Shown here in pieces: positions 2,333 to 29,888 of a stretch of 64,000 nt of DNA. Position 1 is the first letter of the stretch; each line of letters starts with the position of its first letter. The notes under the pieces are model-generated. The model was not told the origin of the DNA. It worked only from the letters and a program-made list of their open reading frames with translations, and did not search any database. The stretch comes from Chthoniobacter flavus (GTDB lineage: Bacteria > Verrucomicrobiota > Verrucomicrobiia > Chthoniobacterales > JACTMZ01). The stretch spans positions 48,044-112,043 of the forward strand of contig CAMDUL010000004.1 of assembly GCA_945878135.1 (NCBI GenBank), in the 5' to 3' direction. Position numbers and translations under genes: made by a program.

Positions 2333-2388
2333 CCGGGAAGAGGGTCGCGGCTTGGCTTTGATCCGCGGGAACGGCACTCTCTGGTTTG

Positions 2389-3141
2389 ATGGAATGGTGG
2401 CTCAAGTCGCTCCTGATGCGCTGGGGATTCGTCCTCAAGCGGCGGCGTCAGGTCATGATGCGGAAACCGGCCGGTGACCGGAGCCTTGACCCGGGGGACC
2501 TCATGGAAGCCATCCACGGGACCGATGTTTACCAGGGCTTTGATTTCGCCGCGCTTCCGTGCGACCTGCAGGGCTGGGGCGGTGATTCACCGGCCTTCGG
2601 CGAGTTGATCACAGCGGTGCGGCCGGCGCTGGTCATCGAGGTCGGAACTTGGAAAGGGGCCTCCGCCGTGTCCATGGCGGACGCGGCGGCGCGCGAGGGA
2701 TTATCCACGACGATTGTTTGTGTCGACACCTGGCTCGGCGCCTTGGAGTTCCGCACGGACCAGGCGGACGCCGAGCGTTTCCGCGCGTTGGAGTGCCGCC
2801 ATGGTTACCCGCAAGTCTACTACCGTTTTCTCGCCAACGTTTGTCATCGCGGCCACCAGCAACGCATCGTGCCCTTCCCGATGGACTCCGCTTCCGCCGC
2901 CCTCTGGTTCATGTCGCACGGGGTCAAGGCCGGGCTGATCTACATCGACGCCAGCCATGAGGAAGAGGCCGTCTACCAGGATCTGGTCGATTACCGTCAA
3001 TTGCTGGCGCCCGGCGGCCGGATCTTCGGCGACGACTGGGACTGGGCCGGCGTGCGCGCCGCAGTCACCACCTTCGCCAAGGCTTACGGACTGACCATCA
3101 CCCATTGCCACGACAAGTGGGTGCTAGCCGCTGCGGCATAA
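2389..3141 (+). CDS. class I SAM-dependent methyltransferase (Methyltransf_24 / CmcI-TylF-like)
   Basis: VIEVGTWKGASAVSMADAA...IVCVDTWLG...LIYIDASHEEEAVYQDLVDYRQLLAPGGRIFGDDWDW. ATG at 2389 chosen over the TTG at 2386; exact start uncertain. Confidence 0.75.
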   Translation: MEWWLKSLLMRWGFVLKRRRQVMMRKPAGDRSLDPGDLMEAIHGTDVYQGFDFAALPCDLQGWGGDSPAFGELITAVRPALVIEVGTWKGASAVSMADAAAREGLSTTIVCVDTWLGALEFRTDQADAERFRALECRHGYPQVYYRFLANVCHRGHQQRIVPFPMDSASAALWFMSHGVKAGLIYIDASHEEEAVYQDLVDYRQLLAPGGRIFGDDWDWAGVRAAVTTFAKAYGLTITHCHDKWVLAAAA

Positions 3142-3220
3142 TCCTCAGGGTTCCCCCCCGCCTACCTTGCTCCCTGCGGCCCCAGCCACGGCCCGCCCGT
3201 GGTTTCCTGCCCTGGGGCGC

Positions 3221-3252
3221 ACTGTTGGACAATTGGCAAATTGTCCAACAGT
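3221..3252. repeat. P element copy P1: perfect 32-bp palindrome (14-4-14), centre GGCA
   Basis: ACTGTTGGACAATT-GGCA-AATTGTCCAACAGT. Ends 15 nt upstream of the ArsR-family ATG. Exact reverse complement of P2 and P3. Confidence 0.95.
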
Positions 3253-3267
3253 GGCTATCGTCCCGTC

Positions 3268-3555
3268 ATGAGTGCATATGACCGCGGACGGGCGCGGATG
3301 ACCGCGTCTTTGGGCAATCATCGTCGGATCGAAATCATCCGTCTGTTGCGCAAACAGCCCCTGCAATGCGTCGATGAAATCGCCGCGGCTTGCAAGATCG
3401 ACAAATCCACCGCGAGCGAGCATCTGCGCCGCCTGCATGAGGGCGGCATGATCGGGAAGAAATACCGTGGACGTCGCGTTCTGCTCAGCGTGACCAAACG
3501 CGCCACCACCATGCTGCGCACGATCGACCTTTTGTGGGATGCTGCGGAAAGCTGA
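3268..3555 (+). CDS. ArsR/SmtB-family winged-helix transcriptional regulator
   Basis: LGNHRRIEIIRLLRKQPLQCVDEIAAACKIDKSTASEHLRRLHEGGMIGKKYRGRRVLLSV is the HTH_20 pattern. ATG at 3268 chosen because the upstream GTG (3199) extension is encoded by the palindrome. Confidence 0.85.
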   Translation: MSAYDRGRARMTASLGNHRRIEIIRLLRKQPLQCVDEIAAACKIDKSTASEHLRRLHEGGMIGKKYRGRRVLLSVTKRATTMLRTIDLLWDAAES

Positions 3556-3586
3556 CTGTTGGACAATTTGCCAATTGTCCAACAGT
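3555..3586. repeat. P element copy P2: perfect 32-bp palindrome, centre TGCC
   Basis: ACTGTTGGACAATT-TGCC-AATTGTCCAACAGT. Its first base is the last base of the ArsR stop codon. Confidence 0.95.
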
Positions 3587-3668
3587 GAGAGGGAAAGGGT
3601 GGGACCTCGCGTTTGCGGTATTGCCTATGGCGGTCACATGACACGAGGTCGTGCGCGCCGCGGTCATC
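3587..3668 (+). repeat. conserved right flank of the P element (copy at P2)
   Basis: Hand alignment with 5145-5227 gives about 67/83 identical positions without gaps. It ends in GTCGTGCGCGCCGCGGTCATC, which resembles the methyltransferase codons VRAAV. Confidence 0.8.
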
Positions 3669-3680
3669 AAAGGCCTGAAT

Positions 3681-4327: not shown

Positions 4328-4470
4328 GCACTATTACCATGTAATACCTTACTCGTGTGGCGCAAGGGGAAAAGTAATCCGGGCAGGGGCTGTTAGTGAG
4401 CGGGACGACCTCCCCGGCGTGCCGCGGCCGCCGGAGTGCCGGGTGGCTGGTAAAAAGTAACGGGTCGGCC

Positions 4471-4494
4471 GAAGAAGTATGCTGCGCACTTCGC
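4471..4494 (+). repeat. H-box hairpin repeat, degenerate copy
   Basis: GAAGAAGTATGCTGCGCACTTCGC followed by GGGCTGAAGAGG. Lies between the HigB-like start and the DUF2442 stop. Confidence 0.7.
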
Positions 4495-4513
4495 GGGCTG
4501 AAGAGGTCAAAAC

Positions 4514-4993: not shown

Positions 4994-5112
4994 TGCTGCA
5001 CGGTGGTGATCTGCTCCTGACGGGAGCAAGCAGGAAGGTATTAGGAGCTGGGGGTCACCTGGGCTGGCGGGTAGCCGCGGGCTGTGCGACGTGGCGCAGG
5101 TTCGGTGCTCTC

Positions 5113-5144
5113 ACTGTTGGACAATTTGCCAATTGTCCAACAGT
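5113..5144. repeat. P element copy P3: perfect 32-bp palindrome, centre TGCC
   Basis: Identical to P2 over all 32 nt. Lies between the divergent DUF4160 pseudogene and the GT2 gene. Confidence 0.95.
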
Positions 5145-5227
5145 CAGCGGGAGTGGGTGAGACCTCCCATTTTCGGTGTTGTCTATGGCCGTCCCATGAC
5201 GCGAGGTCGTGCGCGCCGTGGTTTTCA
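5145..5227 (+). repeat. conserved right flank of the P element (copy at P3)
   Basis: About 80 % identical to 3587-3668 by hand alignment. Runs directly into the methyltransferase-tail remnant. Confidence 0.8.
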
Positions 5228-5298
5228 TCTTCGCCAAGGCTTACGGACTGAGCATCACGCATTGCCACGACAAGTGGGTGCTCTCCCCCGCAATCTGA
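5168..5298 (+). pseudogene. remnant of the 3' end of a methyltransferase gene (paralogue or older allele of 2389-3141)
   Basis: 5230-5298 reads FAKAYGLSITHCHDKWVLSPAI-stop against native FAKAYGLTITHCHDKWVLAAAA-stop (3073-3141). 52 of the first 54 nt are identical. Upstream, IFG (native RIFGDDW) is recognisable in a shifted frame, and an in-frame TGA lies at 5197. Confidence 0.8.
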
Positions 5299-5334: not shown

Positions 5335-5478
5335 CCGCACGTGGCGGGCTTGGCGGACGTTGCGTGGCACGCGGAGTTCGCCAAGGGCGCGGAGGGGAGG
5401 AAGGGACGGAGTCGAGTGGCGAAGGTCGAGAGTCGAGGGCTGCGCACGTTGCGGCCTTTGCGGACGTTGCGTGCGCGG
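5335..5478. repeat. composite GC-rich repeat (W1-W2-W3-W1), copy 2
   Basis: CCGCACGTGGCGGGCTTGGCGGACGTTGCGTG, then GCGGAGTTCGCCAAGGGCGCGGAGGGG, then GAGTCGAGTGGCGAAGGTCGAGAGTCGAGGG, then GCGCACGTTGCGGCCTTTGCGGACGTTGCGTGCGC. Confidence 0.8.
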
Positions 5479-5530
5479 AAGCCGCAAGTTGCGGGGTGCG
5501 TTTGCTGCCTCGGCGTGTTAGGAACCTCTT

Positions 5531-6529
5531 GTGAAATTCACGGTAGTCACGCCCAGTTTCGGTCAACTCGACTGGCTGGAGCTTTGTCTCGCCAGTGTTC
5601 GGGATCAGGTCGCGCACGCGGCGACGCAGGGAGCAGGCAGCATGGAGCAGGGAGCAGAGATTCCAGAGAGGCAGAAGGAGGAGCGGACCGGTGAAGTATG
5701 CTCCGCACTTCACGGGCTGAAGGTGTCGGGTGAAAGGGGGGCGGCTAGGTTGCTAACGGTCGAGCACATTGTTTGCGATGGCGGCTCCCCGGGGATCGAG
5801 GACTTCAAGCAGCGCATGCTTGAGCGGTTTCCGGAAAGCCCGACCTACCGTCTTGAGTTTGTCATCGGTCCGGATGCAGGCATGTATGACGCAATCAACA
5901 AAGGTCTGCGCCGGGCCGACGGGGAAGTTTGCTCCTACCTCAATTGCGATGAACAACTGCTGCCGGGGTCGCTGGCGGCGGTCAGGGATTATTTTGCCAA
6001 ACATGCGGACACTGATGTGATCTTCGGCGACACGATCGTGGTTGGGCGGGAAGGTGAGCCGCTTTGCTATTGGCGTCCGTATGTGCCCTCGCTCGCCCAT
6101 CTGGCCGGTGCGACTTTGAACACCCTCTCCTGCAGCACCTTTTTCCGCCGCAGAGTGGTCGAGGCCGGCCACCTCTTCGAGCCGCAATGGAAAGCGGTGG
6201 GGGACTTGCGCTGGATCCGCGGGCTCTTGGAAAAGCGCCGTCCCATGGCATGCCTGCCGCGGCCGCTGGGGGCTTTCACCTTTCTCGGCGACAATCTCGG
6301 GGCGGGGGCAAAGGCGCGCGAGGAATTCGAGGCGTCACGCGAGTCCTCCTCCGGTCCCGGGCGCTGGTTCCGCCGCGGTTGGCATGGGGTCCGCAAGCTC
6401 TTCTCCGGGGCCTATGTCCGCCGCAAAGTGACCTACGACCTTTTTGCCTTGTCTGATCCGTCGAGGCGGCGACGCTTCACTTGCGACAGCCTCGGCTGGA
6501 CCTGGCCCGGCCTGACGAAATCCCCATGA
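5531..6529 (+). CDS. glycosyltransferase family 2 (carries an in-frame repeat insertion)
   Basis: GTG start. MKFTVVTPSFGQLDWLELCLASVRDQ ... EHIVCDGGSPG ... DAINKGLRRADGEVCSYLNCDEQL is the GT2 pattern. The stop overlaps the next ATG (ATGA). Confidence 0.8.
   Translation: MKFTVVTPSFGQLDWLELCLASVRDQVAHAATQGAGSMEQGAEIPERQKEERTGEVCSALHGLKVSGERGAARLLTVEHIVCDGGSPGIEDFKQRMLERFPESPTYRLEFVIGPDAGMYDAINKGLRRADGEVCSYLNCDEQLLPGSLAAVRDYFAKHADTDVIFGDTIVVGREGEPLCYWRPYVPSLAHLAGATLNTLSCSTFFRRRVVEAGHLFEPQWKAVGDLRWIRGLLEKRRPMACLPRPLGAFTFLGDNLGAGAKAREEFEASRESSSGPGRWFRRGWHGVRKLFSGAYVRRKVTYDLFALSDPSRRRRFTCDSLGWTWPGLTKSP
5615..5750 (+). repeat. H-box mosaic segment inside the GT2 coding sequence (approximate limits)
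   Basis: H-box core at 5691-5713 (GTGAAGTATGCTCCGCACTTCAC, 22/23 to consensus) followed by GGGCTGAAGG. Translated in frame as TGEVCSALHGLKV, between the conserved VRDQ and EHIVCDGGS motifs. Confidence 0.75.
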
Positions 6530-7308: not shown

Positions 7309-7468
7309 CTTGAAGTGCGGGTTGCAAGCGGTCCAAAGGTACGCTGTTCGTGTCGGATCGTTCCTGCTGATGCGCAACCTTTCCGTCCCGCGAAGCGATG
7401 GTGCGTTCAGGGCGAGAAACGGAAACACCGGGCGTTGAGGCCCGGTGTGGCGTGGTTGCGGCGATCTG

Positions 7469-7500
7469 ACGGTTGGAGAATATGCCAACTGTCTAACAGT
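7469..7500. repeat. P element copy P4, degenerate (5 mismatches in 32)
   Basis: ACGGTTGGAGAATATGCCAACTGTCTAACAGT, centre TGCC. Sits at the left GC transition. Confidence 0.7.
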
Positions 7501-8611: not shown

Positions 8612-8820
8612 CGATTGGGAAAATCTCGTCTTGCCGTTGTCTCAACAAATAAAGATCGATTTAACACAGTCAGTGACTCAACGGAAAATGAACCTTCAAA
8701 ATATCTCAGTCAACCAAATTGCGATCAGCGCTTCTCTTTTCCTTGGTTCGCTGCTGGCGGCGGAGTTGCGAACTGAAGGAGAGTCAGGAACCGCGAACCT
8801 AGGTGCATTATTGCGTTGTC

Positions 8821-8852
8821 ACTGCTCGACAGTTTGCCAATAGCCCAACAGT
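8821..8852. repeat. P element copy P5, degenerate (5 mismatches in 32)
   Basis: ACTGCTCGACAGTTTGCCAATAGCCCAACAGT, centre TGCC. Lies between the convergent methyltransferase and epimerase genes. Confidence 0.7.
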
Positions 8853-23699: not shown

Positions 23700-23783
23700 C
23701 CGGCAGTTGCGTCGGGTGATAGGGATGACGGTGAATCTGTAGCCGCGGACGATGGGTTTGAGGAGAAGTTCGACTGAAACGCG
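23700..23783 (-). pseudogene. internal fragment of a GT2 gene, truncated at the low-GC island boundary
   Basis: VELLLKPIVRGYRFTVIPITRRN against intact VELPLKAIVRGYSFTVIPITWRN (24.3 kb). Similarity ends where GC content drops. Confidence 0.75.
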
Positions 23784-23805
23784 GAAACGAGGAAATACTT
23801 AAGAT

Positions 23806-24193
23806 GCCCTAAAGAAGTATGCTGCGCGCTTAACAGAGTGAAGGGTCAAGTTACGGTCTTTTTGTAGTCACCTCGCGAAAAATATTTTTCGAGCCAGACA
23901 AACGGCTCAGCTGCGGTGACGAGTGGCCTGGTGAAGTAGGCTTTGCACTTCACGGGCCAAGTGAAAGTGAAAGGGATGCGCGCCACGCGCGCAGTAACAA
24001 GTGGCTAGTGGCTGGTGGCGGGTAGCTGGTTACTGAACCGGAACGAAGTGGAGATAGCCGCAGGCAAACTTGAGGCCTGAGGGAGCCTTTGCTATCGCAA
24101 TTTGCGATGTCAAAGATTCGAGCTCTTGTTTGCTAAGCTGGAAACGAAAGTCCTTGCGAAAGTGGGCTTGGTCGCACTTCACGGGCTCAAGCG
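23806..24193 (+). repeat. H-box mosaic block M1
   Basis: H-box copies at 23813-23834 (degenerate), 23931-23953 and 24162-24182 (half). Also GTGAAAGTGAAAGGG, CTGAACCGGAACGAAGTGGAGATAG (24033-24057) and the small palindrome ATCGCAATTTGCGAT. Confidence 0.85.
23846..23899 (-). pseudogene. remnant of a GT2 3' terminus
   Basis: VWLEKYFSRGDYKKTVT-stop against intact VWLEKYFSRGDYRKTAA-stop (24194-24247). Confidence 0.75.
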
Positions 24194-25147
24194 TCAAGCC
24201 GCGGTCTTTCGGTAGTCGCCGCGAGAGAAATACTTCTCCAACCATACATAGAGGACGATGAAGAGGTAGCGGCTGCCCATTTCTTTGATTTTGAGTTTGG
24301 CTAGGCCGGTGCGGCGGTTGCGCCAGGTGATGGGGATGACGGTGAAACTGTAGCCGCGGACGATGGCCTTCAGGGGGAGTTCGACCGTGACGTTGAAATG
24401 CGGGGCAAGAATTGGCCGGATGCCGTCGATGACTTCTTTGCGGTAGGCTTTGAAGGCGTTGGTCGTGTCGTTCAAGCCGTGACGGAAAAGGAAGCGCACG
24501 AAGGCGTTGGCCAGGCGGTTCATGAAGAGCTTGATCGGCGGGTAGTCGATGGTGCCGCCTCCCTTCATGAAGCGGCTGCCGAAGACGCAGTCGTAGCCTT
24601 CGTTGAGCTTTTTCCAATACCGGACGACATCGCGGCAGTCGTCGCTCTCGTCGGCCATGAAGATGACCGCTGCGTCGCCGTTCATGGCGTCGAGGCCGAG
24701 GGTGATGGCGCGGCCGAAGCCCTTGGGGCCGGGATTTTGCACGCAGTGTAGAATCCTGTGACGAGGGTCGAGTGACGAGTGAGGAGTGGGTGTAGCTGGG
24801 GGCGGCCCGGTGAAGTATGCTTCGCACTGCACGGGCTGAAGGGGGGACTGGAGACCTGAGTCGGAAGCCTGAGTGACTGCGCCTTTGGCGCGGGTATCGC
24901 CAACCTCCGAATTTCTATCTTCCATCTTCCGCGGCACGCCGTTCAGCCGCGCTGCTTCTTCTTGGAGGATTGGCCAGGTGCGGTCTTTGGAGCCGTCGTC
25001 GACGACGATGATTTCGTGCGGGACGCCGCGGAGGTCCAACTCGAGATGCAGGTGCTCGACGGTGGACGCGATGCAGCCTTCCTCGTCACGCGCGGGGATG
25101 ATGACGGAGAGGAGCCGGAGAGGGGAATTTTTAACAGAAGGTAACAA
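24194..25147 (-). CDS. glycosyltransferase family 2, DPM1/GtrB-like (carries an in-frame repeat insertion)
   Basis: LLSVIIPARDEEGCIASTVEHL...HEIIVVDDGSKDRTW...NPGPKGFGRAITLGLDAMNGDAAVIFMADESDD...FGSRFMKGG...KLKIKEMGSRYLFIVLYVWLEKYFSRGDY. Confidence 0.85.
   Translation of the reverse strand: MLPSVKNSPLRLLSVIIPARDEEGCIASTVEHLHLELDLRGVPHEIIVVDDGSKDRTWPILQEEAARLNGVPRKMEDRNSEVGDTRAKGAVTQASDSGLQSPLQPVQCEAYFTGPPPATPTPHSSLDPRHRILHCVQNPGPKGFGRAITLGLDAMNGDAAVIFMADESDDCRDVVRYWKKLNEGYDCVFGSRFMKGGGTIDYPPIKLFMNRLANAFVRFLFRHGLNDTTNAFKAYRKEVIDGIRPILAPHFNVTVELPLKAIVRGYSFTVIPITWRNRRTGLAKLKIKEMGSRYLFIVLYVWLEKYFSRGDYRKTAA
24750..24925 (+). repeat. H-box mosaic segment inside the GT2 coding sequence (approximate limits, about 57 codons)
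   Basis: GTGACGAGGGTCGAGTGACGAGTGAGGAGTGGG, plus an H-box at 24810-24832 (22/23) followed by GGGCTGAAGGGG. Read on the minus strand in frame as ...LQPVQCEAYFTGPPPATPTPHSSLDPRHR... Confidence 0.8.
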
Positions 25148-25302
25148 AGTGAACGAAGGGGAGGGGCGCCCCGGTGAAGTATGCTGCGCGCTTCACAGGC
25201 CAAGTGAAGAGGGAAAGTGAAAGTGAAAGGGAGCCAGAGACCGGAGATCGGAGGTCGGCCCGGTGAAGTATGCTGCGCACTTCACGGGGTGAAGGAGAAA
25301 GG
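25148..25302 (+). repeat. H-box mosaic block M3
   Basis: Two H-boxes (25174-25196, 25263-25285) separated by AAGTGAAGAGGGAAAGTGAAAGTGAAAGGG. Confidence 0.9.
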
Positions 25303-25614
25303 TTAGGGGTCGTAGCGGGCTTCTTCCTCGGCTACGACCGGCGTGTTGGCGTGAGCTTGACGGGCCCATGCCGGCGCGGATCCGGTGAGCAATTGGTATA
25401 GGTATTCGGGCGAGAGATCGAAGCCGCATCTCCAGGCCAAGGTGGGCCATTCGTCGAGATAGAAGTCCGCGAATTTTCCGGGATCTCGAAGGTCCGCCGC
25501 CGCCTCGTATTTGCCGATGGTGTCGCGCAAATCAATGACACCGGAAAGGCCATCGCTGAACTCGATCGAGATCAGGTGGTCCTCAAGGTGTCGGGCGTTC
25601 TTAACTGATATCAT
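25303..25614 (-). CDS. DUF2442 domain protein
   Basis: MISVKNARHLEDHLISIEFSDGLSGVIDLRDTIGKYEAAADLRDPGKFADFYLDEWPTLAWRCGFDLSPEYLY. Confidence 0.8.
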   Translation of the reverse strand: MISVKNARHLEDHLISIEFSDGLSGVIDLRDTIGKYEAAADLRDPGKFADFYLDEWPTLAWRCGFDLSPEYLYQLLTGSAPAWARQAHANTPVVAEEEARYDP

Positions 25615-25616
25615 GC

Positions 25617-25956
25617 TCAAGTTAATGGTTCGATTTTGTGGAACTCTTTGCTGTCCCACATTTGCAGAAGTTGCCTCCCTCGCCCCGCTCGTGTCGCCCT
25701 ACGGGCTGCCTTCGGCAGGGTTGATGCTCGTCCTGCGAGCGAGCACCCCTGCGGGGCACAGACTTGCGCTGTGTCTATCTCCAACTGCACGGCAGTTTCC
25801 GGTTCCCCGCGCGGCCATCCGCGCCGGTGGTCAGCACTTGCTGCTGATCGAAACGACTGCGCGCCATTCGTTGTATCGCACGTGGAAATGGGGCGGGTTG
25901 TGCTCGTCGAAATACATGCTAATGACGACACCGAGGAATCGACTTATTTCGGGCAT
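25617..25956 (-). pseudogene. disrupted DUF4160 gene
   Basis: MPEISRFLGVVISMYFDEHNPPHFHVRYNEWRAVVSISSKC then an in-frame TGA. The family-typical C-terminus ...LLQMWDSKEFHKIEPLT-stop is in another frame, after a second GEPETAVQLEIDTAQV segment. Confidence 0.65.
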
Positions 25957-26002
25957 GTCATTAGGTAACCGGGACGCTTTGGCAATTGAAAGATGCAATC
26001 TA

Positions 26003-26056
26003 TCATTGCGTGAGGGACTTTTGGTAATTCCCGCGGGAGAAGTATTTTTCAGCCGG
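26003..26056 (-). pseudogene. remnant of a GT2 3' terminus
   Basis: EKYFSRGNYQKSLTQ-stop. It shares the upstream sequence CTCGTCACCGCRGCTGAGCCG with the remnant at 23846-23920. Confidence 0.7.
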
Positions 26057-26286
26057 ACAAGCGGCTCAGCCGCGGTGACGAGTGGCGCGTGAGGGGGGCG
26101 GCCCGATGAAGTATGCTTCGCACTTCACGGGCCAAGTGAAGAGGGAAAGTGAAAAGTGGAGGGTGGAGAGCTGAACCGGAACGAAGTGGAGATAGCAGAT
26201 GGCCCCAAGGCAAATGGGTCGCTCCTGCGACCAAATTTTGAAAAACTGAAAAGCTGAAATACGGCGAACTGCGCGCTTGGCGCGGT
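26057..26286 (+). repeat. H-box mosaic block M4
   Basis: GCGGTGACGAGTGGCG, H-box 26106-26128, GTGAAGAGGGAAAGTGAAAAGTGGAGGGTGGAGAG, CTGAACCGGAACGAAGTGGAGATAG (26171-26195), CTGAAAAGCTGAAA. Confidence 0.9.
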
Positions 26287-26288
26287 TC
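26266..26288 (-). terminator. putative intrinsic terminator downstream of hicA
   Basis: Minus-strand RNA GAACCGCGC-CAA-GCGCGCAGUUC (9-bp stem, one mismatch) followed by GCCGUAUUUCAGCUUUUCAGUUUUUCAAAAUUU. Confidence 0.4.
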
Positions 26289-26493
26289 AAATGTCGTCCT
26301 CGACCAAACCGGCTATTTTCATCTGGGAGCGCAGCAAGCCGATCTTCAGTGGTTGGTTGCCGTGGATGGGGATGACGATGCGCTCTGGTCGGCCGGTTAG
26401 CGTGAAGACGTGATGGCTGCCTTTGATGCGGACAAGAATCCAACCCTTCTTCTGCAAGGCCCGGGCCAGCTCTTTACCGGAAACTTGTTTCAA
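26287..26493 (-). CDS. hicA: HicA-family mRNA interferase toxin
   Basis: MKQVSGKELARALQKKGWILVRIKGSHHVFTLTGRPERIVIPIHGNQPLKIGLLRSQMKIAGL. Confidence 0.9.
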   Translation of the reverse strand: MKQVSGKELARALQKKGWILVRIKGSHHVFTLTGRPERIVIPIHGNQPLKIGLLRSQMKIAGLVEDDI

Positions 26494-26693
26494 AGAGCGA
26501 GTTCCAGCACGCGGCTTTCCTTTTCGGCGACCGCCGAAGCCTCACCGGCTTCGAACCAAAGCTCGACGGCCTCCAGAAGATTGGTGCGGATCTCCTCCTC
26601 ACTTTCCCCCTGCGTGACGCAGCCGGGAAGTGCCGGGACTTCAGCCCAAAAACCACCTTCTTCTGCCTCGTGAACTATGGCTTTGATCGTCAT
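26490..26693 (-). CDS. hicB: HicB-like antitoxin (UPF0150 fold, no DNA-binding extension)
   Basis: TIKAIVHEAEEGGFWAEVPALPGCVTQGESEEEIRTNLLEAVELW. 4-nt overlap with hicA. Confidence 0.85.
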   Translation of the reverse strand: MTIKAIVHEAEEGGFWAEVPALPGCVTQGESEEEIRTNLLEAVELWFEAGEASAVAEKESRVLELAL

Positions 26694-26887
26694 GACTGCA
26701 GCATATCGGCGGTGGGTTGAGGAGGCAAGCGGAGCGGCGCGCTACGCGCGCAGTAGCGGATGGCTGGGCCTGGTGAAGTAGGTTACGCACTTCACGGGGT
26801 GAAGGAGAGTGAAAGTGAGAGGGGGGAGTTACGGAAAGGCTGAAAGACTGAAACGCTGAACGGAGTGAAGATGGGTCGCGAATTCGC
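26694..26887 (+). repeat. H-box mosaic block M5
   Basis: H-box 26773-26795, GTGAAGGAGAGTGAAAGTGAGAGG, GGCTGAAAGACTGAAACGCTGAACGGAGTGAAG. Confidence 0.9.
26700..26728 (-). promoter_or_regulatory. putative sigma70-like promoter of hicBA
   Basis: Minus strand reads TTGCCT - 17 nt - TATGCT, with the -10 hexamer ending 6 nt before the ATG (a leaderless-type layout). Confidence 0.3.
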
Positions 26888-27304
26888 TCACGCCTTTCGC
26901 TTCATGGTGGGTTCGATGACGGTCAGGTTGGTGAAGTAGTCGCGGTAGTATCCCCTGTCTCTGGCCAACAGGCGGCTGGCCTGACAAGACGCGTGTGCTC
27001 CGATGAGAAAATCCGGAAGGACGCGCTTCGATGCACGATTTCGGCGGAGGTAGTCGCGATACATTTCACCGGCCAAGATGGAAGATTCCCGCGAGGACGG
27101 CACAAAGAGGATGTTCCAATCGGCCAAGAAGGAACTTAGATTGTCCTTGGTCAGCGCGGGGGTGATCTCGGCCAGCACGCATTCCCCGATGACCAGCGGT
27201 CCGTTGCCGAGCGCCCGTTTCAAGGCTTCTTCCGAGGCTTGACCCCACTGTGGGTCGTCAGTCAACACGTCAAGAATGACACTGGAATCCAAGGCGGTCT
27301 TCAT
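26888..27304 (-). CDS. vapC: PIN-domain toxin VapC
   Basis: MKTALDSSVILDVLTDDPQWG...GECVLAEI...DFLIGAHASCQASRLLARDRG. ATG at 27304 overlaps the antitoxin stop. Confidence 0.85.
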   Translation of the reverse strand: MKTALDSSVILDVLTDDPQWGQASEEALKRALGNGPLVIGECVLAEITPALTKDNLSSFLADWNILFVPSSRESSILAGEMYRDYLRRNRASKRVLPDFLIGAHASCQASRLLARDRGYYRDYFTNLTVIEPTMKRKA

Positions 27305-27525
27305 CCTCCGCGCACGAGGCCCAAATATTCGTCGACCGAGCGACCAACCGGAAGAATCCCTTTTCCGCGCCAAGCCGAAATCGGATTTTCCTGGAGTATT
27401 TTTGTCACAATGATGCGGCCCTCGTCCTCGGCAAACGCGAGAACGGAACCGGCCTCGAGCCCCAGGTCATCGCGAATGGGTTTGGGGATGGTCACTTGGC
27501 CCTTTTCCGAGACAATAGCATTCAT
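27301..27525 (-). CDS. vapB: AbrB/MazE/SpoVT-family antitoxin (VapB)
   Basis: MNAIVSEKGQVTIPKPIRDDLGLEAGSVLAFAEDEGRIIV. Confidence 0.85.
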   Translation of the reverse strand: MNAIVSEKGQVTIPKPIRDDLGLEAGSVLAFAEDEGRIIVTKILQENPISAWRGKGILPVGRSVDEYLGLVRGG

Positions 27526-27531
27526 ACTTTT

Positions 27532-27559
27532 ACGGTAGGCATTCTTACAACTGTGTCAA
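27532..27559 (-). promoter_or_regulatory. putative sigma70-like promoter of vapBC
   Basis: Minus strand reads TTGACA - 16 nt - TACCGT, with the -10 hexamer ending 6 nt before the ATG. Confidence 0.3.
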
Positions 27560-27896
27560 TCAAGAGGGCGCGGCGGACGCAGACAGCCCGCGGGGGACGA
27601 GCGATGAGTGATGAGTGAAGAGTGAAAAGTGGAGGGTGGAGAGCTGAACCGGAACGAAGTGGAGATAGGTCGCTTTAGCGATCAACTGATACCGGAACGA
27701 AGTGGAGATAGCCCGAAGGCAAAAGCTGAAAGGCTGAAAGGCTGAGAGGGGACGAGTGGCGTGTGACGAGTGACGAGTAGCCCAGTGAAGTATGCTTCGC
27801 ACTTCACGGGGTGAAGGGAAAGTGAAAGGGGAGGCGCGCTTCACAGGCTAAAGAACCCTCCAGCGCTTCGCGCTTACGGGTTGGAGAGAGTGAATC
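27560..27896 (+). repeat. H-box mosaic block M6
   Basis: GATGAGTGATGAGTGAAGAGTGAAAAGTGGAGGGTGGAGAG, CTGAACCGGAACGAAGTGGAGATAG twice (27644-27668, 27692-27711), GCTGAAAGGCTGAAAGGCTGAG, GACGAGTGGCGTGTGACGAGTGACGAG, H-box 27785-27807, half copy 27831-27850. Confidence 0.9.
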
Positions 27897-28286
27897 TCAG
27901 CCGAGGGACTTGACGTGGGGGTAGTCGAGGATGAGGCGGTCGGTTGTGATGATGGTGAGATTTTCCAGGCGCGCCGTGGCGATGATGATGCGATCGGCGG
28001 GATCACGATGGACGGGCTCGGGCAGGGAGTAAGCTTCTTCGATGATCTCGAGGGAGATCGGGACGATGTTCCATCCGTTCCGTTCCGTTTGGGTGCGGAA
28101 CCATTTCTTCCAATGTTGCGGAAGACGGATCTTTTGCCGCTCCTGCAAGCAGGCCAGTTCGGCCGCGACGATCGGGCTGCAGTGGACGATCTGCTCGGGC
28201 GAAGCGACCAACTCGAGGGCCGCGGTGCTGAGTCGCTCCGGTGCGGCGGCAAGATAGAGCAACGCGCAGGTATCGAGCAGGATCAT
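27897..28286 (-). CDS. vapC: PIN-domain toxin VapC
   Basis: MILLDTCALLYLAAAPERLS...DPADRIIIATARLENLTIITTDRLI. Confidence 0.85.
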   Translation of the reverse strand: MILLDTCALLYLAAAPERLSTAALELVASPEQIVHCSPIVAAELACLQERQKIRLPQHWKKWFRTQTERNGWNIVPISLEIIEEAYSLPEPVHRDPADRIIIATARLENLTIITTDRLILDYPHVKSLG

Positions 28287-28534
28287 CGGGCGCCTTCAGG
28301 CCCGGCCAAGATTCCCCAGTCCTCCGGTGGAATGGCGGGTCCTTCCAAGTCGGCGTGGATTTGGACGGTTGGATCGAATCCCGTGGTCGAGCGGTTGGGG
28401 CGTGAGGCGAGGGGTGTGATTTTCGCCACCGGCTTGTTGCGTGAGCAGACCAAGATGGAATCGCCAGACTGCACTTTGCCGAGGAACTCGCTCAGGCTGT
28501 TTTTCAGGACAGCGACGTTCACTGTGTGAGTCAT
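28283..28534 (-). CDS. Phd/YefM-type antitoxin
   Basis: MTHTVNVAVLKNSLSEFLGKVQSGDSILVCSRNKPVAKITP. 4-nt overlap with vapC. Confidence 0.75.
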   Translation of the reverse strand: MTHTVNVAVLKNSLSEFLGKVQSGDSILVCSRNKPVAKITPLASRPNRSTTGFDPTVQIHADLEGPAIPPEDWGILAGPEGAR

Positions 28535-28800
28535 GGCTTGAAATGTGGCTATAAAGTTGGCCAGGTCAAGCGTGAAGAGCGGCCTGGTGATCTATACTTT
28601 GCACTTCATGGGCTGAAGGGGACGAGTGGCGAGTGAAATGTGAAATGTGAAAAGTGGAGGGAGGGAAAAAAGAGAAGAAAAGCTGAAAGACTGAAAGGCT
28701 GAAAGACGGACGGGGTGCGTGTGGCGAGCGGCTCGTTGAAGTATGCTTCGCACTTCACAGGCTGAAGGGGGTCCGCTTCGGGGTTTCAGTTTCCTTTGTG
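28535..28800 (+). repeat. H-box mosaic block M7
   Basis: H-boxes at 28587-28609 (degenerate) and 28736-28758. Also GTGAAATGTGAAATGTGAAAAGTGGAGGG and GCTGAAAGACTGAAAGGCTGAAAG. Confidence 0.85.
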
Positions 28801-29005
28801 CTCTCCGTGCCTCCGTGAGAGCCAGTCGGTTTGCTGCGGGACACTGCGGAGCAGGCTGCCGCCTTTGGTCGGCGGGTTGGCGAACCAAGGCGGAGGCTCC
28901 GGTTGGAGCCAGTGATTCAGTTTTCGGTGGTTCAGTGTTCAGTAGCCCTGAGGCACTTGAAACGAACGGCAGAAGAAAGGTGTTTCACGGGAATGGAAAA
29001 ATTGC

Positions 29006-29617
29006 TCAGCCGCCACCGAGGATTTTTCTGGCGAGGGGTAAAATGGTGCGGGCACTGCGGTGCCATTTGGCCACGCGGTCGAGGCGGAAGCGCATGGAAG
29101 AGAGGGCGGAAGGCTGGGACCTCAAAGATGAGTTGAGGGATGAGGGATGAGAGTTGAGGGAGGCGCGCAGGGCTTTGATGCGGGATTCGGTGGATTCGAG
29201 GCGGGGGATGACGCGTTCTTTGAGGAAACCGGAGATGAGGAGCTTCATTTCGAGCTTGGCGGTGTAAAGCGCCTGACGAGAGCCGTCGGTGCGCTCTTTG
29301 ACCACCGCGCCGAAGGCCTCGAGTTGCCGCAAGCCCTGGCTGGCCGATCCCTGGCTGATGCCGAGGCGCCGGGCGATGTCCTCCATGCTCAAAGGAGTCT
29401 CGTGGGCGAAGAGAAGTCCGTAAATTTGTCCGTAAGACTTGGGGTTGCCGAACAATTCGGCGAGATCCGTGAAGATGTCGACCAGGCCGGATTCGTAATC
29501 GGCCGGGAGCAGGGAGCCGGGAGCGGGGAGCGAGCCCTGCGGCCCGGAGATCCTGCGGGTCGGAGAGAGGCGGGCGACGCGTGACGGGTCACGGGCCAAC
29601 TTGGGGGCCGGGGGCAT
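29006..29617 (-). CDS. GbsR/MarR-family transcriptional regulator
   Basis: FGNPKSYGQIYGLLFAHETPLSMEDIARRLGISQGSASQGLRQLEAFGAVVKE. ATG at 29617. The N-terminal about 40 codons overlap a repeat also found at 33165-33214. Confidence 0.75.
   Translation of the reverse strand: MPPAPKLARDPSRVARLSPTRRISGPQGSLPAPGSLLPADYESGLVDIFTDLAELFGNPKSYGQIYGLLFAHETPLSMEDIARRLGISQGSASQGLRQLEAFGAVVKERTDGSRQALYTAKLEMKLLISGFLKERVIPRLESTESRIKALRASLNSHPSSLNSSLRSQPSALSSMRFRLDRVAKWHRSARTILPLARKILGGG
29520..29569. repeat. 50-nt repeat (copy a) inside the 5' part of the GbsR-family ORF
   Basis: GAGCGGGGAGCGAGCCCTGCGGCCCGGAGATCCTGCGGGTCGGAGAGAGG. 41/50 identical to 33165-33214 by hand count. Confidence 0.75.
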
Positions 29618-29888
29618 GGGGAAAGTGAAGAGCGAAGAGTGAGGAGTGAGGAGTGGAGAGTGAAGATCCACGATAGAGGGGTGGGAGGGAATGTCAATTC
29701 AAAATGAAATTGGTAGCGGAGGCCCCGGTGAAGTATGCTGCGCACTTCACGGGGAGAAGAACGGGGGTTACTGAAACGCTGAAAGGCTGAAGGGCTGAAA
29801 CGCTGAATGGCCGAGGGACCAGTGGCACGGTGAAGTTGGCTTCGGCCTCGGGAAGGGGGCCCTTAAAGGGGGAGCGGGGCGGCGTTGG
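29618..29888 (+). repeat. H-box mosaic block M8
   Basis: GTGAAGAGCGAAGAGTGAGGAGTGAGGAGTGGAGAGTGAAG, H-box 29728-29750, CTGAAACGCTGAAAGGCTGAAGGGCTGAAACGCTGAA, degenerate H-box 29830-29852. An AT-rich TTGACA-16-TATCGT (minus strand, about 29676-29703) is a possible GbsR promoter. Confidence 0.85.

Follow-up and report, generated by a model that had tools for sequence, protein, structure and literature searches.

Repetitive extragenic palindromes (REPs) lie mainly downstream of open reading frames (ORFs), mostly where the neighbouring genes converge or run in the same direction, and some of them flank exopolysaccharide clusters (Di Nocera et al. 2013, PMC3733652). Occasional REPs sit in frame within genes, at positions that encode loops; such intragenic copies reach their highest numbers in the verrucomicrobium Opitutus terrae and in Rickettsia conorii (PMC3733652). 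The tagged REP super-families carry GTAG (or GYAG, GTRG, GTGG) or CGTC at one stem end, and the same paper also mentions the Rickettsia palindromic elements, or RPEs (PMC3733652). Here we describe the H-box, a short hairpin repeat in a 64,000-nt stretch of Chthoniobacter flavus DNA (assembly GCA_945878135.1, contig CAMDUL010000004.1, positions 48,044 to 112,043; hereafter the window), and in particular the copy within a GT2-family glycosyltransferase gene at 5531–6529. Our preferred reading, to which we assign a probability of about 70%, is that the H-box is a dispersed hairpin repeat of the REP kind and that one copy and its 15-nt tail, 54 nt in all, entered a length-variable loop of the GT2 protein. 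In our view the H-box is a new REP-like family whose behaviour is that of REPs and RPEs, and we do not place it in the tagged REP super-families. In-gene repeats are already known from Rickettsia and O. terrae; the H-box is a new example, not a new phenomenon.

Like REPs, which are 20–40 nt long, the H-box is short, forms a hairpin and occurs in many copies, and it is a REP in the broad sense of a dispersed imperfect palindrome. Most copies lie outside genes, past the ends of ORFs, and few lie between divergent genes; the H-box also occurs beside polysaccharide clusters and occasionally in frame in gene loops. RPEs, for their part, are about 100–150 bp long. They are said, in work by Ogata and colleagues from 2000, to be palindromic repeats lying in frame in working protein genes, where they add a peptide at a tolerant site. 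The H-box in the GT2 gene behaves in the same way, as an in-frame insertion (54 nt, 18 codons) in a gene that is intact and constrained (dN/dS 0.09), but this is a likeness of behaviour and not of common descent. The H-box unit is only 39–54 nt, it has no sequence relation to RPEs, most of its copies are intergenic, and the host of RPEs is an obligate intracellular alphaproteobacterium. A further likeness is to the bacterial interspersed mosaic elements of E. coli and the intergenic mosaic elements of Neisseria (BIMEs and NIMEs): the gaps that hold H-boxes are built from a few modules (the H-box, GTGACGAG, GCTGAAAG and 42–48-nt flanks) in varying combinations, although the module sequences differ from those of BIMEs and NIMEs.

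An H-box within a GT2 glycosyltransferase gene

The host gene (5531–6529, plus strand) is an ORF of 332 aa. It belongs to the GT2 class by its match to PF00535, the Pfam GT2 family (E = 1.8e-07), and by GT-A motifs that flank the insert and are conserved in 29 aligned relatives, the N-terminal VVTPSFGQLDWLELC..SV.DQ and EHIVCDGGS. Its homologues and gene order agree: an adjacent methyltransferase gene overlaps the end of the GT2 gene, and the order is the same in orthologues. The Pfam match begins only at residue 77, and alignment to the closest solved structure starts no earlier than residue 75, which corresponds to residue 33 of that chain. Among the 120 homologues listed, BLASTP identity is at most 81% over the full length and 86–87% for partial matches, and at most 87% in a MAFFT alignment. 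The commonest length in this set is 287 aa, with ~5 residues between ...SV.DQ and (I/V)EHIVCDGGS; in the window protein, ...DQ and (I/V)EH are 50 residues apart. The window is an ENA metagenome contig; the named relatives of its proteins, and those of the repeat, are metagenome-assembled genomes of Chthoniobacterales and other Verrucomicrobia.

Protein and DNA alignments place the whole extra segment, from ...VRDQ to VEHIVCDGG, at 5609–5755 on the plus strand (49 codons, 45 above the 287-aa orthologues) and resolve it into a composite of modules. The left module (5621–5683, plus) consists of GGAGCAGG-type purine-rich repeats followed by AGAGATTCCAGAGAGGCAGAAGGAGGAG. The H-box insertion unit (5684–5737, plus; 54 nt, codons 52–69) reads RTGEVCSALHGLKVSGER and comprises the 39-nt core GGACCGGTGAAGTATGCTCCGCACTTCACGGGCTGAAGG (5685–5723, plus) and the 15-nt tail TGTCGGGTGAAAGG. 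Within it, GGTGAAGTATGCTCCGCACTTCAC at 5690–5713 is followed by GGGCTGAAGG at 5714–5723, and the frame of the ORF translates this as TGEVCSALHGLKV. The right module, GGGGCGGCTAGGTTGCTAACG, occupies 5738–5758 (plus). Five relatives of this gene show different module combinations. The H-box unit is present in the window and in L068, and missing from L108, L007, L005 and L003. The left module is of the GGAGCAGG type in the window and of the GTGACGAGTG type in L068, L108 and L007; L005 has both, sharing with the window the first part of 5621–5683, where L068 has the GTGACGAGTG-type sequence instead. The right module is found in all of these, H-box-free relatives included, except L003, a 287-aa form that lacks all three blocks.

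L068 and L108 are collinear save for 54 nt, CGGACC-GGTGAAGTATGCTCCGCACTTCAC-GGGTTGAAGG-TGTCGGGTGAAAGG, between GAGGAG and GGGGC. The H-box event is a discrete, clean 54-nt (18-codon) insertion. The preliminary description had put the consequence of the insertion at 40–50 extra codons; 45 is indeed the excess over the 287-aa orthologues, but since L068 and the empty site of L108 differ by 54 nt, the H-box brought only 18 of them. The remaining ~27 extra codons are low-complexity modules that are also found, as a mosaic, in H-box-free relatives. They predate the H-box, and the loop was already expanded when it arrived. The window and L068, two diverged lineages, share a single insertion event. 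Outside the insert their GT2 genes differ with dS 0.49 and dN/dS 0.09, so the gene has been under purifying selection since the shared insertion and the enzyme kept working with the passenger in place. This dated insertion, with two lineages at dS ~0.5 and an empty-site relative, could be used to measure how well an enzyme tolerates passengers.

The in-frame placement of an H-box in this gene, as originally proposed, is borne out by the sequence, by the copy statistics given below and by independent contigs. A contig from public run X1 covers 5438–5840 with one difference from the window, and in L068, from an unrelated metagenome, the junctions are identical to those of the window; an assembly chimera is thereby ruled out. 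No excised or spliced form of the insert was found: DNA contigs of four runs and of one RNA-labelled run, which are blind to rare forms, show only alleles of other strains, differing in letters between the joints. The earlier account allowed that the family might natively carry the segment, and alignment with insert-free orthologues excludes this for the H-box part.

The loop that took the insert connects the first helix of the nucleotide-binding fold to its second strand. In an AlphaFold model of low overall confidence (mean pLDDT 53.6), residues 37–71, between a helix at 13–36 and a strand at 76–83, have pLDDT below 50, and the insert-bearing loop appears disordered. The length of this loop varies across the GT2 family, many relatives carry some insert at exactly the same site, and the loop is an insertion hot spot family-wide.

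How might the insertion have come about? We propose that the hosts of the H-box are freshwater Verrucomicrobiota of the Chthoniobacterales type, and that its usual home is the intergenic DNA of flexible regions with toxin-antitoxin modules and surface-polysaccharide genes. One copy with its 15-nt tail would have entered the already expanded GT2 loop as 54 nt. Because the insert is a multiple of three, is read in the only stop-free frame of the plus strand and lies in an apparently disordered loop, it would survive as an 18-residue passenger peptide, probably with no function of its own. The spread of the H-box may involve a hairpin-directed single-strand mechanism (HUH/RAYT-like), or recombination.

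The H-box family and its intergenic setting

The conserved H-box unit is ~39 nt long, GGCCCRGTGAAGTAKGCTKCGCACTTCACGGGCYGARGG, and forms a hairpin with a 10–12-bp stem, one bulged base and a 9-nt loop. Position by position over 137 unique copies, conservation is confined to these ~39 nt and has sharp edges; the flanks are merely purine-rich. In the GT2 copy (core 5685–5723) the stem arms are 5691–5697 and 5707–5713, the loop is 5698–5706, outer pairs join 5688–5689 with 5714–5716, and the predicted fold of the core has an energy of −13.2 kcal/mol. The edges of the repeated unit in read contigs fall at 5681–5688 and 5720–5723. Pair counts agree with the fold: at every stem position, 112 or more of the 134 unique copies have a Watson-Crick pair, and one pair outside the search pattern is swapped from G:C to C:G in nine copies. 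Among the window copies, the ten better-preserved ones fold at −12 to −20 kcal/mol and the degraded ones at 28583 and 28732 at −7.5 and −9.3 kcal/mol. When the outermost pair is left aside, G:T-type wobbles outnumber A:C-type wobbles (41 vs 26), and plus-strand folds are somewhat more stable. These counts and stabilities favour the plus strand as the acting strand in a suggestive, not decisive, way. We also considered whether in-gene copies have weaker hairpins than intergenic copies; their fold energies show no clear difference.

The repeat is far more frequent than chance allows. A 24-mer with up to three mismatches occurs at 10 places in the window and at none in 100 shuffles, and a looser pattern has 12 matches where 0.04 are expected. 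A hidden Markov model built from the copies finds 12 full and four partial copies in the window, all on the plus strand and confined to 4.4–5.7 kb and 23.8–29.8 kb. An exact scan of reference genomes yielded eight loci, mostly in Verrucomicrobia, and a metagenome scan yielded 91 loci; with up to five mismatches there are 174 copies in 97 loci, the window included, in contigs of 35–66% GC. An exact-pattern scan of viral contigs gave no match. Across the whole window there is no Rfam match at gathering thresholds, and a permissive E-value scan of 23.5–30 kb returned only six sub-threshold, chance-level matches to unrelated families. Searching the full text of the published literature for the core, in either orientation and as DNA or RNA, returned unrelated primers only. 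With no Rfam or literature match for its sequence, the H-box is a previously undescribed addition to the few families of palindromic repeats found inside working genes of bacteria, here in the setting of uncultured freshwater Verrucomicrobia.

Two AT-rich contigs contain an exact H-box core, L010 (binned as WOR-3, 35% GC) and L053 (42% GC); this could reflect horizontal spread or wrong assignment of contigs to genomes. In L010 the core is bracketed by a direct repeat, TTTGTTT(G/A)GTTTATTTAGT. This repeat may have been present in tandem before the element landed in it, or may be a long target duplication.

The H-box is mainly intergenic. Within the window, the copy nearest to that in the GT2 gene (4466–4504, plus, four mismatches to the core) lies ~10–17 nt past the stop codon of a minus-strand DUF2442 gene. 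Nine further full copies, also plus, begin at 23925, 25168, 25257, 26100, 26767, 27779, 28581, 28730 and 29722 and form a cluster at 23925–29760, with partial plus-strand copies at 23814, 24172, 27835 and 29823. This cluster has approximately one H-box in each gap between minus-strand toxin-antitoxin units (DUF2442, HicAB, PIN, Phd/PIN, MarR-like). Across the loci, with the H-box written as plus, the right-hand gene points at the element 88 times and away from it 28 times, where gene orientations in metagenome loci come from a crude third-position-GC caller that was hand-checked in the window only. This ~3:1 bias places the reverse complement of the H-box directly after the stop codon of a gene; many copies are ~15 nt from a stop codon, and gaps between divergent genes hold only eight of the 86 copies that have a called gene on both sides. 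Orientation is a bias and not a rule: one locus, L107, mixes both orientations among same-strand genes.

The H-box hairpin is not followed by a T run, and its flanks are purine- or pyrimidine-rich, unlike an intrinsic terminator. Between 23 and 30.5 kb there are eight terminator-like sites (shuffle mean 8.1), none of which coincides with an H-box hairpin. Two such sites on the plus strand (stems 28762–28781 and 28768–28787) start in the tail of the copy at 28730–28768 and use the downstream sequence GGGGTCCGCTTCGG.

The wider setting is a Wzx/Wzy-type surface-polysaccharide cluster at ~2.4–25 kb, with methyltransferases, GT2 and GT4 glycosyltransferases, a Wzy-like protein, a flippase and a pyruvyl transferase. 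This cluster is flanked by two toxin-antitoxin islands (MqsA/RelE-like, DUF2442, HicAB, PIN, Phd/PIN), which hold the H-boxes; no copy lies in the half of the window with housekeeping genes (RecA, MreC, bactofilin). Over all loci, H-box neighbours are rich in PIN, DUF2442, HEPN/MNT, HicAB, DUF4160, DUF5615/DUF433, PemK and polysaccharide genes. H-box flanks contain short tandem repeats (GCTGAAAG, GTGAAAG and GTGACGAG) similar to the tail or stem of the element itself, and these purine-rich simple-repeat flanks are partly derived from the H-box tail. Different H-boxes also share larger neighbouring modules: 26148–26195 is identical to 27621–27668 (48 nt, 100%), and 23886–23927 resembles 26045–26086 (42 nt, 88%). 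The intergenic gaps are mosaics of reusable pieces.

Alternative explanations

Several observations sit awkwardly with a mobile, REP-kind repeat. The H-box lacks the GTAG or CGTC end tag: its stem flanks read sGnGG-CCC... and ...GGG-CYGARGG, and GTAK occurs only at the stem-loop junction. Its copies are single and locally in one orientation, without the inverted dimers typical of REPs, and they differ from REPs further in flanks that carry short tandem repeats from the element's own tail. No transposase, recombinase or RAYT gene was found in the window ORFs scanned, a set that leaves out several larger ORFs at 33–64 kb, and none of these was found among the 25 commonest families beside the 174 copies, although a RAYT is usually a single-copy gene. 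The mobility of the H-box is deduced from one filled/empty site and from its dispersed distribution. At the one junction examined, GAGGAG / GGGGC, there is no direct repeat longer than 2–3 nt and no clear target-site duplication. The core varies unusually little among genomes that differ widely in GC content, another departure from REPs. Between the window and L068 it differs at one of 39 nt where the divergence of the rest of the gene predicts ~4.7 (estimated P about 0.05), which hints at constraint on the nucleic acid itself. The crude calling of gene orientations and the low confidence of the AlphaFold model belong on the same side of the balance. As for a miniature inverted-repeat transposable element, the hairpin arms could act as inverted repeats, and the single filled/empty pair offers a direct repeat of at most 2–3 nt. 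We looked for a RAYT gene between inverted H-box pairs (L062, L090, L082), and the ORFs there are PIN and ParE toxin-antitoxin operons.

Could the H-box instead be a functional site? It might be a recognition or junction sequence for cassette shuffling, like an integron attC site in function and not in sequence, or an RNA or DNA signal at gene ends, and the GT2 copy would then be a by-product or an internal point of recombination or regulation. We think this rather unlikely, although it would account for a near-invariant core in contigs of 35–66% GC, for the single difference from L068 in spite of dS 0.49, and for the single orientation kept over whole clusters, a bias that over all loci is only 3:1 and is broken in L107. 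A site of this kind would also explain why cassette content varies among relatives, with homology stopping at H-box edges. In L020 (6134–6253) the second GT2 gene of the window, described below, lies next to the MarR-like gene; in the window (25166–28855) the two are separated by 3.69 kb of toxin-antitoxin cassettes (DUF2442, HicAB, PIN, Phd/PIN), a block that begins exactly at the H-box at 25170, but whose right junction is 87 nt beyond an H-box. Single cassettes common to the window and L056, L065, L031 and L097 end at H-box edges, and internal homology breakpoints within 5 nt of an H-box are 3.5x enriched over random positions. This enrichment is, however, about what any intergenic feature would give, since divergence and rearrangement concentrate between genes. 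No integrase or recombinase gene was found nearby in the scans given above, and a signal at gene ends is not favoured by the missing T run, by the terminator-like sites that fall elsewhere or by the lack of an Rfam match. We consider it unlikely that H-boxes serve as sites for recombination or processing. We regard as a long shot the more specific proposal that the H-box is recognised in a sequence-specific manner by an enzyme working on single-stranded DNA or RNA, which inserts, duplicates and swaps small gene cassettes (toxin-antitoxin modules, polysaccharide genes) in Verrucomicrobia. Such a system, if real, would exchange cassettes by a route distinct from that of integrons, and the copies in two GT2 genes, a Wzt-like ATPase and an exosortase would be its occasional stray hits. 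Should H-boxes mark the junctions of toxin-antitoxin cassettes, this would bear on how surface-polysaccharide regions diversify.

It is highly improbable that the segment is a native functional part of the GT2 family, such as a regulatory or interaction loop, with its likeness to the repeat secondary. Many relatives do have some insert at the exact site, and the H-box form persists with an unchanged peptide in two diverged lineages. Nonetheless, the commonest family form (287 aa) is insert-free, the inserts of relatives differ in sequence and length, and the region is predicted to be disordered. Moreover, intergenic H-boxes match these 39 nt as DNA, and the repeat is read in other frames and on the other strand in other genes. 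We give even less credence to an integron-type attC or CRISPR-type repeat that lies in the gene by chance, or to a chimera assembled at a repeated k-mer. What recalls an integron is that same-orientation hairpins separate small, often toxin-antitoxin, units at a cassette-like spacing of 0.1–1 kb, with varying cassette content; repeat k-mers are also much deeper than their flanks in read contigs. However, the ends of the conserved block lack the R'/R'' cores (RYYYAAC...GTTRRRY), no integrase or cas gene was found in the ORFs scanned, and the commonest neighbour families include no integrase domain. attC sites are 57–141 nt, longer than the 39-nt unit; the H-box hairpin is much shorter, and its sequence is conserved, not just its structure. 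The spacing is irregular, with genes between copies, and the junctions in the GT2 gene are confirmed by the X1 contig and by a contig from another metagenome.

Two duplications that include an H-box were seen among the metagenome loci. In L031 (1180–1450, reverse strand) the leader of the second GT2 gene and an H-box occur twice, ~190 nt apart, and in L097 a DUF2442 cassette occurs twice, at 1858 and 4828 (2970 nt apart), in a duplication that includes the H-box.

Other coding copies and neighbouring sequences

A second H-box (24804–24842, plus, with one stem mismatch and an adjoining GTGACGAG module) lies in another GT2 gene, the DPM1-like gene at 24194–25147 on the minus strand, where it is read as LQPVQCEAYFTGP. 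Insert-free relatives of this protein are 250–257 aa long and others are up to 362 aa, with the variation at one loop, likewise a hot spot for insertions; an H-box in this loop is found only in the window copy. The two in-gene insertions were described as independent, and we agree: they concern different genes, different loops and opposite orientations relative to the gene. The opposite reading directions are likewise correct, since both H-boxes (5687 and 24806) are on the plus strand, as is gene 5531–6529, and gene 24194–25147 is on the minus strand. Less can be made of the observation that both strands of the element are open. Three of the six frames of the core are indeed stop-free, but composition-matched shuffles average 4.2, and 94% of them have at least three. 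The H-box shows no sign of having been shaped for translation. On its plus strand it has just one usable frame, the one used in GT2 gene 5531–6529.

Other coding copies come from metagenome loci. An H-box lies in frame in a Wzt-like ABC ATPase at seven loci, between GFHPELT and NIFLNG, where it splits the Pfam match, and another lies in frame in an exosortase. Together, the two GT2 genes, the ABC ATPase and the exosortase use all three open frames of the H-box. At the protein level, a query of proteins with three-frame H-box peptides gave one candidate, and a profile of the plus-strand translations of the window H-boxes, searched against 1.84 billion representatives, gave two matches (an unrelated repeat protein and a 36-aa spurious ORF).

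Why were two glycosyltransferases hit in one window? A target preference or strong filtering for frame-preserving insertions had been suggested, and our results support the second. Only two of the 12 full copies (16 with the partial ones) are coding, though most of the window is estimated to be coding, and both lie in length-variable loops, which fits strong filtering; the dN/dS of 0.09 points the same way. A preference for glycosyltransferases as such is unsupported, because the H-box is also in frame in the Wzt-like ABC ATPase and the exosortase. All of these genes belong to repeat-rich polysaccharide regions, and two glycosyltransferases were hit because repeats are locally dense and both loops tolerate inserts, with a possible contribution from GTGACGAG-type targets. 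The GTGACGAG module lies directly 5ʹ of an H-box in at least five places: three intergenic copies of the window, the GT2 gene of L068 that corresponds to 5531–6529, and the second GT2 gene. Hence, a preference for existing GTGACGAG-type simple repeats as target is possible.

These coding copies matter for annotation: where these glycosyltransferases and ABC ATPases vary in length, the cause is repeat DNA and not new domains, and many small "hypothetical proteins" in these regions are repeat translations. The Wzt-like ABC ATPase genes (L024, L026, L048, L059, L091, L096) have at least five separate small in-frame repeat inserts, the presence of which varies among close relatives. One of these, a ~87-nt element (ACCCAGGCGGCGGGGCAGCC...GAGCGAATCAAC, read TQAAGQP.GRLPQ...GSERIN), occurs at three ABC ATPase sites, each at a lysine codon. 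One of the three sites is within the Walker A motif of L024, which is broken up there by this element, a repeat distinct from the H-box; the L024 gene contains a stop codon as well and may be dead. Inserts in these lineages are not always harmless.

The polysaccharide region has further repeats and duplications. Its GC content is 50–56% at 5.5–23.4 kb, against 60–70% in the flanks, and such a lower GC content is typical of a horizontally exchanged surface-glycan region. A second repeat family, the 33-nt near-perfect palindrome CACTGTTGGACAATTKGCMAATTGTCCAACAGT, sits in five intergenic gaps around GT2 and methyltransferase genes (3220–3252, 3554–3586, 5112–5144, 7468–7500 and 8820–8852). The 3ʹ end of a CmcI-like methyltransferase gene (2386–3141) is duplicated directly upstream of the first GT2 gene with 86% identity (3051–3134 and 5208–5291), and the stretches 3552–3669 and 5110–5227 form a second pair. 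In L005 and L108 the CmcI-like methyltransferase and GT2 genes are adjacent. The ~2.1–2.4 kb segment between them in the window, with an ArsR-type regulator gene, a MqsA/RelE-like pair, a DUF2442 gene and an H-box as cargo, looks like an insertion bounded by duplicated flank. Finally, a 92-nt fragment of the coding sequence of the second GT2 gene is repeated downstream of it (23701–23792 vs 24312–24403, 82% identity), as a gene remnant in a repeat-rich gap.

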